Below, piece by piece: positions 13,026 to 19,075 of a stretch of 21,775 nucleotides of DNA (the first letter of the stretch is position 1; each line of letters begins with the position of its first letter). The stretch comes from a virus (lineage: Duplodnaviria; Heunggongvirae; Uroviricota; Caudoviricetes). The position numbers and the translations under genes were made by a program. The notes beneath the pieces are model-generated. The model was not told the origin of the DNA, did no database searches, and saw only the letters and a list, made by a program, of their open reading frames with translations. The stretch is from the IMG/VR virus record IMGVR_UViG_2565956731_000002; one strand, given 5' to 3'.

Positions 13026-13409
13026 ATGCGTGATATTCAGATGGTTCTTGAGCGTTGGGGAGCGTGGGCGGCTAATAATCATGAAGATGTGACCTGGTCG
13101 TCCGTTGCCGCCGGTTTTAAGGGATTAATTCCTTCAAAAGTAAAATCTCGCCCGCAATGTTGTGACGATGACGCGATGATCATTTGCGGGTGCATGGCCC
13201 GTCTGAAAAAGAACAACAGCGATTTACACGATTTATTAGTAGATTATTATGTATGTGGTATGACATTCATGTCACTGGCAAGTAAGCATTGCTGCTCGGA
13301 TGGTTATATCGGGAAAAGGTTACAGAAGGCTGAGGGCATAATTGAAGGGATGTTAATGGCATTAGATATCCGGTTAGATATGGATATCGTTGCTAATAAT
13401 TCTAATTGA
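13026..13409 (+). CDS. quuD: Late-gene antiterminator Q (DLP12 QuuD-like)
   Basis: [26 protein letters not shown]…[18 protein letters not shown]… recognised as QuuD-type Q; ATG at 13026 with GGAG upstream (the ORF track begins at an upstream TTG at 13011). Confidence 0.85.
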
Positions 13410-13424
13410 TATGCAATTGTTTAC

Positions 13425-13597
13425 TAAAAGTTATTAAAAATGGGGCGTGGAAACGCCCCCAAAATAAAGGGTAATATATAACAGAAGGTTTATATAGTAA
13501 GAAGCAAGGTAGTGCTTCTAAAGGAAGTGGCTTGAGGGCTCCACTTATATGTTGCGGAGGCAAAGCCTCCCGCAACATATCTTTTTCGTAAGTCAGA
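13425..13597 (-). ncRNA. ipeX: nmpC 3' UTR with its own minus-strand terminator; corresponds in position to the IpeX regulatory RNA described downstream of nmpC/lc
   Basis: Highly structured stretch between the porin stop (13598) and a minus-strand hairpin GGGGCG-TTTCCA-CGCCCC (13442..13459) followed by AUUUUUAAUAACUUUU. The published description places ipeX between the nmpC stop and its terminator. Confidence 0.4.
13547..13588 (+). terminator. Plus-strand intrinsic terminator about 140-180 nt downstream of Q; candidate tR'-type terminator of a short 6S-like late leader
   Basis: ATATGTTGCGGAGG-CAAAG-CCTCCCGCAACATAT (about 14-bp stem with one bulge) followed by CTTTTTCG. It is not a terminator on the minus strand, where there is no U-run after the hairpin. 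Confidence 0.5.
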
Positions 13598-14680
13598 TTA
13601 GAACTGATAAACCAGACCTACAGCGACGATGTCGTCGGTATCAATACCAGCTGTTTTGGTAAACTTACTATCGTCAATTAAGTTGATTTTGTAATCAACA
13701 AAAGTGGACATGTTTTTATTAAAGTAGTAAGTAGCACCGACATCGACATACTTGACTAAGTCTCGGTCACCATGAACACCAAGGTCTTTACCTTTTGACT
13801 GAAGGTAAGCAACAGATGGTCGCAGACCGAAGTCAAACTGATATTGTGCTACTGCTTCAAAGTTTTGTGCTTTGTTTGCAATATGGTTATTACCAAAAAC
13901 GGTCATATTCTGAGTTTCAGAATATGTGGTAGCCAGATAGATATTGTTCGCATCATATTTCAGGCCTGCAGCCCATACTTCCGCATTTTTGCCGGAGGCA
14001 TTGAATTTGCTCTTACCATAGGCGACCTGACCGTCAGTGCGATCTGATTTAGCATAGGTTGCACCCACGCCGAATCCTTCATACTCATAAGTAGTGGAGA
14101 AACCGAAACCATCACCATTGGCTTCAGTTACGTCAGTGCGGTCATTTTTACCCTGATACTGAGCAGCAAAGTTCAGGCCATCGACCAGACCAAAGAAGTC
14201 GTTGTTACGATAAGTTGCAACACCAGTAGTGCGACCAGTCATGAACACATCTGTTTGGGTCCAGGTATCACCACCGAATTCTGGCAGGACGTCAGTCCAC
14301 GCACCGATGTCGTATGCTACACCGTAGTTACGGCCGTAATCGATTGAGCCGTAATCACCAAATTTCAGGCCTGCAAATGCAAGACGGGTTTTGTCTTTGG
14401 AAGAACCTTGAGATTCAGCACGGTTGCCTTTGAATTCATATTCCCACTGACCGAAACCAGTCAGTTGATCGTTGATTTGGGTTTCACCTTTGAAGCCAAG
14501 ACGGGCATAAGTAGTATCACCATCATCTGCATCATTAGAGGAGAAGTAGTGCTTGGCATTAACTTTCCCGTATAGATCCAGCTTGTTACTGTCTTTATTA
14601 TAAATTTCAGCTGCCTGAGCAGACATCGCCATCAGTACTGATGCAGCTACAGCAGAAATTGCCACTGTTAATTTTTTCAT
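13598..14680 (-). CDS. nmpC: OmpC/OmpF-family general porin (NmpC / Lc type), intact, with signal peptide
   Basis: [40 protein letters not shown]… and the C-terminal …VAVGLVYQF are typical enterobacterial trimeric porin; location between Q and the holin as in DLP12/PA-2. Confidence 0.9.
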
Positions 14681-15108
14681 TGTACGCCCTTTTTTTTGAA
14701 CTATTATTAAAAAATGATGTCACTGCGCGATAAATATTCATCTAATCAATGCGATTATTTCAAGATGTAAGTTTTAGTTTCTCATTTAATTTGTGAAGTA
14801 GATCTCTATTTTTATCTGAACCTTTTCTATCTAATCCTATTCATGGCTCTTGTTTGAACGAAAATAAATCTATTAGCTAATTTATATTAATGGCACTTAT
14901 TTATAAGCGCTCTATAATTCTTTAACTTAATTTAAACAAACTAAAAATAACATCGGAAATTATTCATTGGTTATTTGTTGAAGTTTTCTTATGTATTTGT
15001 GGTGGTGTTTTGAACACTCGGTGGCATTCTCACAAATATCATTTAGTAGTTTACGTACGTAAAAAATTGGTTATGCTGTTAAGAGTGGTTACTTCGTCAC
15101 ACAGCTTA

Positions 15109-15140
15109 AACCCGCCGTCGAGCGGGTTTTTCCATTTTTT
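15109..15140 (+). terminator. Plus-strand intrinsic terminator inside the 590-bp AT-rich region between the porin start and the holin
   Basis: AACCCGC-CGTCGA-GCGGGTT hairpin followed by TTTCCATTTTTT; no ORF of meaningful size upstream on the plus strand. Confidence 0.55.
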
Positions 15141-15269
15141 GAGTCTCGATATTAGCTGATAACCCAATACCTGAGTTATTCACTGACTCCGAATCTGTTA
15201 CGTTTCTGCCTTTATTGCGATACGTAGTATCCCCTTAATTTACACCCGCTTTGTCTGCGAGGTGGGGTT

Positions 15270-15485
15270 ATGAAATCCATGGATAAGTTAACAACGGGTG
15301 TCGCCTATGGCACCTCAGCAGGTAGTGCCGGGTACTGGTTTTTACAGTTGCTCGATAAAGTCACGCCCTCACAGTGGGCGGCAATAGGTGTGCTGGGTAG
15401 TCTGGTATTTGGCTTGCTGACGTATCTGACAAACCTTTATTTCAAGATTAAAGAAGATAAGCGTAAGGCTGCGAGAGGTGAATAA
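15270..15485 (+). CDS. essD: Phage 21-type class II holin/pinholin with dual-start motif (Met1-Lys-Ser-Met4)
   Basis: [71 protein letters not shown] closely matches S21 as remembered; GAGGTGGGG ribosome-binding site; stop overlaps the next start (TAATG). Confidence 0.85.
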
Positions 15486-18400
15486 TGTCGCCATCATTAC
15501 GCAAGGCTATTGCTGCTGCTATTGGTGGTGGGGCTGTTGCCATAGCGTCTGTGCTCATCACTGGTCCGAGTGGTGACGATGGCCTGGAAGGTGTCAGCTA
15601 CATACCATACAAAGATATTGTTGGTGTATGGACTGTATGTCACGGGCATACAGGAAAAGACATCATGCTCGGTAAAACGTATAAAGGCAGCAGTAAGGGG
15701 CATACCCCGCGCGAAGCGAAGGACAACCTGAAATCCACGCAGTTACTGAGTGTGATCGATGCCATCAGCGAAGGGCCGATTGAAGGTCCGGTGGATGGGT
15801 TAAAAAGCGTGCTACTGAACAGTACGCCGGTGCTGGACACTGAGGGGAATACCAATATCTCCGGTGTCACGGTGGTGTTCCGGGCAGGTGAGCAGGAGCA
15901 GACTCCGCCGGAGGGGTTTGAATCCTCCGGCTCCGAGACGGTGCTGGGTACGGAAGTGAAATACGACACGCCGATCACCCGCACCATCACGTCGGCAAAC
16001 ATCGACCGTCTGCGTTTTACCTTCGGTGTGCAGGCACTGGTGGAAACCACTTCAAAGGGTGACCGGAATCCGTCGGAAGTTCGCCTGCTGGTTCAGATAC
16101 AGCGTAACGGTGGCTGGGTGACGGAAAAAGACATCACCATTAAGGGCAAAACCACCTCGCAGTATCTGGCCTCGGTGGTGGTGGATAACCTGCCTCCGCG
16201 CCCGTTCAATATCCGGATGCGCAGGATGACACCGGACAGCACCACAGACCAGCTGCAGAACAAAACGCTCTGGTCGTCATACACCGAAATCATCGATATG
16301 AAACAGTGCTACCCGAACACGGCACTGGTCGGTGTGCAGGTGGACTCGGAGCAGTTCGGCAGTCAGCAGGTGAGTCGTAATTATCATCTGCGCGGGCGCA
16401 TTCTGCAGGTGCCGTCGAACTATAACCCGCAGACGCGACAATACAGCGGTATCTGGGACGGAACGTTAAAACCGGCATACAGCAACAACATGGCCTGGTG
16501 TCTGTGGGATATGCTGACCCATCCGCGCTACGGCATGGGGAAACGTCTTGGTGCGGCGGATGTGGACAAATGGGCGCTGTATGTCATCGGCCAGAATTGC
16601 GACCAGTCGGTGCCGGATGGTTTTGGTGGCACGGAGCCGCGCATCACCTGTAATGCCTGGCTGACCACACAGCGTAAGGCGTGGGATGTTCTCAGTGATT
16701 TCTGCTCGGCGATGCGCTGTATGCCGGTATGGAACGGGCAGACGCTGACGTTCGTGCAGGACCGGCCGTCGGATAAGGTGTGGACCTATAACCGCAGTAA
16801 TGTGGTGATGCCGGATGATGGCGCGCCGTTCCGCTACAGTTTCAGCGCCCTGAAGGACCGCCATAATGCCGTTGAGGTGAACTGGATTGACCCGGATAAC
16901 GGCTGGGAGACGGCGACAGAGCTTGTGGAGGACACGCAGGCCATTGCCCGTTACGGTCGTAACGTCACGAAGATGGATGCCTTTGGCTGTACCAGTCGGG
17001 GGCAGGCACACCGAGCCGGGCTGTGGCTGATTAAAACGGAACTGCTGGAAACGCAGACCGTGGATTTCAGCGTGGGCGCAGAAGGGCTTCGCCATGTGCC
17101 GGGCGATGTTATTGAAATCTGCGATGATGACTATGCGGGTATCAGCATCGGCGGGCGCGTGCTGGCGGTGAACAGCCAGACCCGGACGCTGACGCTCGAC
17201 CGTGAAATCACTCTGCCATCCTCCGGTACCACGCTGATAAGCCTGGTTGACGGAAGCGGCAATCCGGTCAGCGTGGAGGTCCAGTCCGTCACCGACGGCG
17301 TGAAGGTAAAAGTGAGCCGGGTTCCTGACGGCGTTGCCGGATACAGCGTGTGGGGGCTGAAGTTGCCGACGTTGCGCCAGCGCCTGTTCCGCTGCGTGAG
17401 TATCCGTGAGAACGATGACGGCACGTATGCCATCACTGCCGTGCAGCATGTACCGGAAAAAGAGGCCATCGTGGATAACGGGGCGCACTTTGACGGCGAC
17501 CAGAGCGGCACGGTGAATGGTGTCACGCCGCCAGCGGTGCAGCACCTGACTGCCGAAGTCACCGCAGACAGCGGGGAATATCAGGTGCTGGCGCGCTGGG
17601 ACACGCCGAAGGTGGTGAAGGGGGTGAGCTTTATGCTTCGCCTGACCGTGGCAGCGGATGACGGCAGTGAGCGGCTGGTCAGCACGGCCCGGACGACGGA
17701 AACCACATACCGCTTCACGCAACTGGCGCTGGGGCGGTACACGCTGACAGTCCGGGCGGTAAATGCGTGGGGGCAGCAGGGCGATCCGGCGTCGGTATCG
17801 TTCCGGATTGCCGCACCGGCAGCACCGTCGAGGATTGATCTGACGCCGGGCTATTTTCAGATAACCGCCACGCCGCATCTTGCCGTTTATGACCCGACGG
17901 TACAGTTTGAATTCTGGTTCTCGGAAAAGCGGATTACCGATATCAGGCAGGTTGAAACCACAGCCCGCTATCTTGGCACGGCGCTGTACTGGATAGCTGC
18001 CAGTATCAATATTAAGCCGGGCCATGATTATTATTTTTATATCCGCAGTGTGAATACTGTTGGCAAATCGGCATTCGTGGAGGCTGTCGGTCAGGCGAGC
18101 GATGATGCTTCCGGCTATCTGGATTTTTTCAAAGGCCAGATAACTGAATCCCATCTCGGCAAGGAGCTGCTGGAAAAAGTCGAGCTGACGGAGGATAACG
18201 CCAGCAAACTGGAGGAGTTTTCGAAAGAGTGGAAAGACGCCAACGATAAATGGAATGCCATGTGGGGCGTCAAAATTGAGCAGACCGAAGACGGCAGGCA
18301 TTATGTCGCGGGTATTGGCCTCAGCATGGAGGATACGGAGGAAGGCAAACTGAGCCAGTTCCTGGTTGCCGCTAACCGTATCGCGTTTATTGACCCGGCA

Positions 18401-19075
18401 AACGGGAATGAAACGCCGATGTTTGTGGCGCAGGGCAACCAGATATTCATGAACGAAGTGTTCCTGAAGTATCTGACGGCTCCCACCATTACCAGCGGCG
18501 GCAATCCGCCGGTATTTTCCCTGACACCGGACGGGCGGTTGACGGCGAAAAATGCCGATATCAGCGGTAACGTGAATGCGAACTCAGGGACGCTCAATAA
18601 TGTCACGATTAACCAGAACTGTCGGATTCTGGGAAAACTGTCTGCCAACCAGATTGAAGGTGATATTGTCAAAACGGTGGGAAAAGCCTTTCCGAGAAAT
18701 GGCAGTTATGCCAGCGGTACAATAACGGTCACTGTGTACGATGACCAGGCTTTTGACCGTCAGATAGTAATCCCACCCGTTCTGTTTCGCGGTGGTAAGC
18801 ATGAAAACTTCAACAGCAACAACCAACAGTCATACTGGTATTCAACCTGTAAGCTGCAGGTACTGAAGAACGGACAGGAAATCTTTCAGCAACCCGCGAC
18901 GGATGTCAGCAGGGTATTTTCATCCGTCATTGATATGCCAGCGGGACACGGCCATGTCACCCTGACTTTCAATGTTTCTTCATATGGTGCAAATAACTGG
19001 ACGCCAACGACCAGTATCAGCGACCTTCTTGTTGTCGTGATGAAGAAATCAACAGCCGGTATCAGTATCAGTTGA
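15485..19075 (+). CDS. J: In-frame deletion fusion: first ~65 codons of a SAR endolysin (R21-like) joined to nearly full-length tail-tip host-specificity protein J (from J residue ~3)
   Basis: N-terminus [66 protein letters not shown] matches the R21 SAR endolysin start; from ~15677 the sequence [39 protein letters not shown]… is lambda J from its N-terminus through >1000 aa. The last ~150 aa diverge from lambda J. Confidence 0.85.

Follow-up and report, generated by a model that had tools for sequence, protein, structure and literature searches.

An intact NmpC/Lc-type porin gene with an IpeX-like transcript end in a decayed lambda-like prophage at icd of Escherichia coli

Phage PA-2 carries the porin gene lc beside its lysis genes and expresses it in lysogens. 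Its counterpart in Escherichia coli K-12, nmpC, lies in the cryptic prophage DLP12 (qsr') at argU and is annotated in MG1655 (NC_000913.3) as a pseudogene, b0553, in two fragments split by IS5B. The insertion is found 58 nt before the stop codon, with a TTAG target duplication at its junctions, and once it is removed the restored NmpC has 365 residues, just four of which differ from PA-2 Lc (J02580.1). The initial annotation of the DNA described here had mentioned this disruption of the K-12 copy by IS5, correctly as the K-12 genome attests, and had asked for a comparison with K-12, which is given below. The end of the porin transcript has been described as well. In a review (PMC12197685), ipeX is a 167-nt DLP12 RNA that forms part of the porin transcript and is processed from it, and reviews assign to IpeX the post-transcriptional repression of OmpC and OmpF.

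Intact copies of the gene have been studied in other strains. In CFT073 the gene C_RS07310 (= c1560, nmpC) is induced at 37 °C relative to 23 °C, with log2 fold changes of 6.45 for RNA (2.4e-39) and 2.67 for protein (PMC12890032). The NmpC of Perceval, an active phage, is expressed 10-fold above the local background in the LF82 lysogen, where the sitABCD genes of Perceval are expressed too (PMC9928086). Among UPEC isolates, 89% had NmpC in their outer-membrane proteome (Wurpel et al. 2015, cited in the review PMC9609314), and nmpC mRNA is a reported target of the small RNA RybB in E. coli (PMC3333887). Gene, location, RNA tail, regulation and expression have thus all been published already, and nothing in the present locus is new in kind; what we add is a precise placement, that of a Perceval/CFT073-type allele within a defunct icd prophage, together with one small idea that connects IpeX to the thermoregulation of OmpC.

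The DNA analysed here (the window) is a stretch of 21,775 nucleotides from a tailed-phage record of IMG/VR (IMGVR_UViG_2565956731_000002). The porin gene lies antisense between quuD and essD, the classic position of lc and nmpC, and has a terminator of its own. The genes concerned are the following.

13026-13409, plus strand: quuD, a Q-type late antiterminator gene, convergent with the porin gene (RefSeq annotation; PHROG 79, E=2e-52; 97% identical to K-12 quuD)
13598-14680, minus strand: coding sequence of an nmpC/lc-type general porin (ORF; Pfam, NCBIfam and PHROG matches; identity to Lc, NmpC and the CFT073 protein)
14612-14680, minus strand: predicted signal peptide of the porin, codons 1-23
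15270-15485, plus strand: essD, a holin gene, divergent from the porin gene (annotation; PHROG holin families)

The porin reading frame is single and uninterrupted in the ORF listing, begins with ATG, includes its stop codon and specifies 360 residues that correspond to WP_000737271.1. Residues 29-360 align with positions 1-337 of the 337 in the Pfam profile PF00267 (Porin_1) at E=1.9e-151, and the match to PHROG 410 runs end to end, over all 360 positions; such full-length family matches in an intact ORF of this size far exceed chance. The top relatives in the PDB are OmpC, OmpK36 and OmpF (E<=1e-119). Because the mature PDB porin chains (OmpC, OmpK36, PhoE and OmpF) align to residues 24-360 and the sig_peptide of PA-2 lc spans 69 nt, residues 1-23 are assigned as the signal peptide. 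The C-terminus, ..VGLVYQF, presents a beta-signal with a terminal phenylalanine, and the initial annotation was right in describing an uninterrupted frame with a full signal peptide and a C-terminal beta-strand signature (VYQF). In an alignment with K-12 OmpC and OmpF, the loop-3 motif PEFGG (P133-G137) is invariant, as are K39, R60, R99, R150, D130 and E134, which we take to be the equivalents of K16, R42, R82, R132, D113 and E117 of the OmpF constriction. A single-sequence AlphaFold2 model was unusable (mean pLDDT 32.6); the identity of 62–66% to solved porins points to a trimeric, 16-stranded diffusion pore. As judged from its sequence, the gene encodes the complete precursor of a general porin of the OmpC/OmpF family.

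Membership in this family brings up the question of whether the gene is simply the core chromosomal ompC and not prophage-borne at all. The product name given by PGAP/RefSeq is 'porin OmpC', and the protein scores 521 bits against the NCBIfam OmpC model, a subfamily model and not an equivalog, for which the cutoff is 484. The identities nevertheless run the other way, with 66% to K-12 OmpC (and 62% to OmpF) against 91-92% to NmpC and Lc, and the position between Q and holin in a prophage at icd, in a module that is also found in free temperate phages, refutes a core ompC by gene context, so that we give this explanation practically no chance. With the general porins OmpC, OmpF and PhoE of E. 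coli and OmpD of Salmonella the protein shares the Pfam family and the C-terminal signature, and its constriction residues align with those of OmpC and OmpF. It differs from OmpC, OmpF and PhoE in being carried by a prophage and in its regulation (CRP sites here; induction at 37 °C in CFT073).

Comparison with the nearest relatives places the gene within the NmpC/Lc group as an allele of its own. The porin shares 331 of 365 aligned residues (~91%) with the restored K-12 NmpC, and the same number of 365 with Lc, from which it differs at 34 aligned positions. Residues 1-148 are identical to K-12 NmpC; beyond them, 30-codon blocks with 98-99% DNA identity to K-12 give way to blocks with 65-82%, in which synonymous differences are numerous, and over the whole coding sequence the identity is 84.9%. 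Five clusters (182-187, 217-227, 263-267, 303-306 and 335-347) hold the amino-acid changes and two short indels; they are spaced around 40 residues apart and coincide in the alignment with sites of OmpC/OmpF indels. From these indel positions, the spacing and the topology of OmpF, the clusters probably represent surface loops L4-L8, which would mean that the exposed face has undergone allelic diversification. Outside the clusters the changes in the coding sequence are synonymous in many cases and non-synonymous in few, so that the protein is clearly under purifying selection there. With its clustered and synonymous divergence after residue 148, the gene is an old allele in its own right within the NmpC/Lc group. 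The type proposed at the outset, NmpC/Lc, accordingly holds for the group, at 91% to both members, but the gene is neither Lc nor K-12 NmpC itself, the differences being clustered.

The locus also shares its surroundings with these systems. The order Q-porin-holin is common to DLP12 and Perceval, and the partial PA-2 record agrees with it on the side of the lysis genes, the only side covered. Like PA-2 lc, the gene lies beside the lysis genes in the same orientation, has a 23-residue signal peptide and is preceded by near-identical upstream DNA with both CRP sites; unlike Lc, which has 365 residues and belongs to an active phage, it encodes 360 residues, is heavily diverged at synonymous positions in its distal half and resides in a dead prophage. 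With the K-12 copy it shares the block ybcN-ninE-ybcO-rusA-ylcG-quuD-nmpC-essD, the flanks of which are 90-97% identical, whereas the K-12 gene is split by IS5B in an element at argU and the gene here is intact in an element at icd. Near copies are those of CFT073 and Perceval: the CFT073 protein C_RS07310 is identical, as confirmed by translation, and its gene occupies a prophage at the same icd site with the same sitABCD cargo, although the element described here lacks ~18.3 kb of that prophage, carries IS insertions and shows 10 differences in the upstream spacer. Perceval of LF82 has the same gene order and sitABCD cargo and is 99.9% identical over 13300-15300.

This 2-kb module (13300-15300) recurs widely. 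It is 100% identical in many genomes, FDAARGOS_536 and M1/5 among them, and some two dozen phage records, which include 4A7, Lambda_4C10, D2, 1W, 3W, Perceval and ev017, match it at 99-99.9% identity. Of 5426 complete E. coli genomes, 2503 have a match that covers at least 80% of the coding sequence, and from the 5426 come 1225 records with a coding sequence at least 99% identical. Roughly one complete E. coli genome in four has the identical protein; it is found on at least 1000 public contigs, in a protein cluster of 2741 members. An intact nmpC is the rule in E. coli, and the IS5 allele of K-12 is the exception.

In near-identical genomes the RefSeq annotation places the prophage in icd, the site of e14, bounded on the left by intE and on the right by sitABCD and then a duplicated 3' fragment of icd. 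The element is what is left of a lambda-like prophage in pathogenic E. coli, of the Perceval/CFT073 type, and no longer makes phage. The intE gene is frameshifted into two minus-strand ORFs (1-492 and 588-1127), the O-like replication gene is frameshifted too, and a copy of IS3 is broken by ISEc21 (transposase at 2456-3532); 1-5487 shows no sign of a repressor, cro or N region. On the plus strand, in an ORF of 1196 residues (15485-19075), the initial ~66 codons of the endolysin gene rrrD are joined in frame to the start of the tail-tip gene J, with the junction near 15683 (..GGTAAAACGTATA|AAGGCAGCAG..). Relative to the CFT073 icd prophage the fusion amounts to a deletion of ~18.3 kb, in which Rz, iss/bor, the terminase, head and tail genes were lost; RefSeq names the fused ORF plainly gpJ in strain MCJCHV-1. 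With the prophage dead, the porin gene has become a fixed part of the chromosome, and 'lysogen' is the wrong word for its host. The lysogenic conversion that the initial annotation had considered is to be qualified accordingly: given the frameshifts in intE and O and the ~18-kb rrrD-J deletion the carrier is not inducible, and the gene is a fixed trait of the chromosome instead of one conferred by a live lysogen.

What remains to be considered is whether the intact gene would be expressed, and here the 589-bp spacer between the porin start codon and essD (14681-15269) is of interest. With 33.3% GC against 47.6% for the whole window, the spacer is the long AT-rich upstream region that had been noted before, although part of it turns out to be DNA resembling a late promoter and terminator of the plus strand rather than porin control region. 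The following elements were located in it and at the start of the coding sequence.

14661-14667, minus strand: CAGUGGC (+14..+20 in the mRNA), the complement of GCCACUG, the seed at the 5' end of RybB (RybB sequence from MG1655)
14681-14889, minus strand: 5' UTR and porin promoter region, near-identical to the upstream sequence of PA-2 and K-12
14754-14762, minus strand: candidate extended -10 element TGAAATAAT, weak, from the relaxed promoter scan
14789-14809, minus strand: annotated CRP site that the PA-2 record places upstream of lc (J02580.1 misc_binding 1363-1383), 100% conserved
14890-14918, plus strand: promoter-like site of consensus grade, ATGGCA-17-TATAAT, from the promoter scan
15084-15104, minus strand: the other annotated CRP site of PA-2 (J02580.1 misc_binding 1067-1087), 100% conserved
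15108-15129, plus strand: intrinsic terminator ahead of the holin gene, ~190 nt after the plus-strand promoter, from the terminator scan

A strict scan for sigma-70 promoters gave nothing on the porin strand and a relaxed one only weak candidates, and the sole consensus-grade promoter in the spacer, at 14890-14918, is on the plus strand. Together with the terminator at 15108-15129 this site is probably the late promoter PR' with tR', arranged like PR'-6S-tR' of lambda, the target of Q; the pair and the divergent porin promoter share one AT-rich spacer. The CRP pattern scan returned three matches where 11 were expected by chance, and the match at 14792-14807 was retained solely for its agreement with the annotated PA-2 site. 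A duplex of RybB with the porin mRNA has a predicted energy of -13.9 kcal/mol, a value reached by 5% of shuffles and not significant alone, and the complementary seed is a weak hint that RybB may pair with this mRNA.

These features could also be read as those of a gene that is intact yet quiescent, its AT-rich upstream DNA silenced (for example by H-NS) and its promoter weak, so that the porin makes no normal contribution to the outer membrane. The nmpC gene of E. coli B was reportedly described as quiescent by Prilipov in 1998. The porin strand without a consensus promoter and the GC content of 33% in the spacer fit such a gene, as does the low level of the CFT073 gene at 23 °C relative to 37 °C, and three SNPs that separate the sequence here from CFT073 lie within 75 nt of the ATG. 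Against this, the proximal promoter region hardly differs from its counterpart at PA-2 lc, a gene that is expressed in lysogens. The identical protein of CFT073 is strongly induced and is detected at 37 °C, expression of the Perceval copy, 99.9% identical, was seen in LB, and the proteome survey places NmpC in the outer membranes of 89% of UPEC. Quiescence thus appears improbable to us. Expression of the exact copy in this remnant is very likely, though an extrapolation, because the spacer differs from that of CFT073 at 10 positions (SNPs or indels), five of them in 14681-14889 and three within the 75 nt next to the ATG.

Downstream of the porin stop codon, the sequence matches the end of the described transcripts, with two features.

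13436-13597, minus strand: 3' UTR with four hairpins, a homologue of the nmpC/lc transcript end that bears ipeX (homology to K-12 and PA-2; RNA fold)
13436-13460, minus strand: intrinsic terminator of the porin transcript, GGGGGCGTTTCCACGCCCC followed by ATTTTT (terminator scan)

The whole intergenic stretch of 188 nt (13410-13597) is 93.7% identical to K-12 and to PA-2 J02580.1, and its predicted RNA fold has four hairpins (-56.6 kcal/mol, z=-5.4). From the stop codon to the terminator the distance is ~162 nt, compared with the 167 nt reported for IpeX. The 12 differences from K-12 are mostly in predicted loops, and in the stem of hairpin 1 a C-G pair is found where K-12 has a C-C mismatch. 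Searches of Rfam, at the gathering threshold over the whole window and at E<=10 over 13300-15300, gave no credible family and hence no IpeX model. The likeness to IpeX is thus one of location after the porin stop codon, of 93.7% identity to K-12 and PA-2 and of the bounding terminator, and any activity in this copy is a prediction that sequence identity does not prove. The IpeX-like 3' UTR that had been proposed is in this way substantiated, by the identity over 188 nt and by the terminator, and with it all elements of the initial annotation that could be checked hold up. On the plus strand, hairpin 1 is followed by CTTTTTCG (together 13547-13580), a combination that could serve as a terminator for quuD transcription heading toward the porin 3' end.

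The high conservation of this 3' end allows a different emphasis, in which selection would have retained the unit in the decaying prophage chiefly for its RNA or exclusion effect: the IpeX end of the transcript, the replacement porin or both would remove OmpC from the surface and so block OmpC-dependent phages and colicins, and diffusion of solutes through the porin would be incidental. In line with this explanation, the receptor of PA-2 is OmpC, and Lc lysogens lose OmpC. The 3' UTR retains 93.7% identity to K-12 compared with 84.9% for the coding sequence, and the Q-porin-holin block has outlived both the 18-kb deletion and several IS hits. The higher identity of the UTR may, however, reflect just a recombination breakpoint, and the purifying selection on the protein outside the variable clusters, with its invariant pore-lining residues, speaks against this explanation. 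We consider such a primary role of the RNA or of exclusion rather unlikely, and it overlaps the interpretation of the unit as a functional porin, with which it is compatible.

Taken with the published behavior of the close copies, these observations lead us to the reading, to which we assign a probability of about 0.85, that the locus is a functional porin moron with a CRP-associated, temperature-responsive promoter of its own, a terminator at 13436-13460 and an IpeX 3' end that lowers OmpC and OmpF, so that the porin repertoire of the host is shifted. Under this functional-porin reading, a moron equipped with a promoter and a terminator would have entered a lambdoid prophage in antisense orientation, between the gene for the late antiterminator Q and the lysis cassette. 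In the prophage state its promoter would drive transcription, with strong induction at 37 °C, and NmpC would reach the outer membrane, as has been published for the identical and 99.9% identical copies. There the protein may form a trimeric diffusion pore that adds to or replaces OmpC and OmpF, while the 3' end of its mRNA may supply IpeX and bring OmpC and OmpF down post-transcriptionally. CRP-cAMP, and possibly RybB, would modulate the porin. The shifted repertoire could then alter the permeability and antigenicity of the surface, as well as the supply of receptors for OmpC-dependent phages. Because the porin repertoire influences antibiotic entry, surface antigens and the receptors for phages and colicins, a porin supplied by a prophage matters for the biology of ExPEC.

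One observation on CFT073 may be related. At 37 °C ompC goes down in this strain, the reverse of K-12, as nmpC goes up by more than six log2 units, and the paper that reports these changes makes no mention of IpeX. A tentative idea, which we hold to be possible but doubtful, is that the intact nmpC-ipeX transcript induced at 37 °C delivers IpeX and thereby causes the fall in OmpC, which would explain the reversal of thermoregulation between CFT073 and K-12, since in K-12 the IS5 insertion would uncouple the promoter from ipeX. If this is true, the remnant prophage would act as a temperature-triggered porin switch on entry into the host, with NmpC up and OmpC down.

The remnant holds other genes that appear as cargo. 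At its right end, just beyond the window, is the sitABCD operon for an iron/manganese transporter (23506-26955 in locus L001 and 28347-31796 in locus L004). Opposite the phage early genes, on the minus strand at 10045-11088, lies another moron, a gene for an alpha/beta hydrolase (esterase) that is found in Perceval too. The plus strand at 5737-10008 encodes an inverse autotransporter with an intimin/invasin-type beta domain, the length of which is 1423 aa here, 1302 aa in FDAARGOS_536 and 1183 aa in MCJCHV-1, strains that are otherwise near-identical, and this variation in length suggests variation in repeat copy number.

A K-12-type nmpC has also found its way into a phage. Isolate 434B of phage 434 (OL657227.1; L009 204-2500) carries the gene with the same IS5 insertion, after codon 346, within a region annotated as '434 nonhomology', and the isolate evidently took up the Q-nmpC segment of DLP12 by recombination with a K-12 host.
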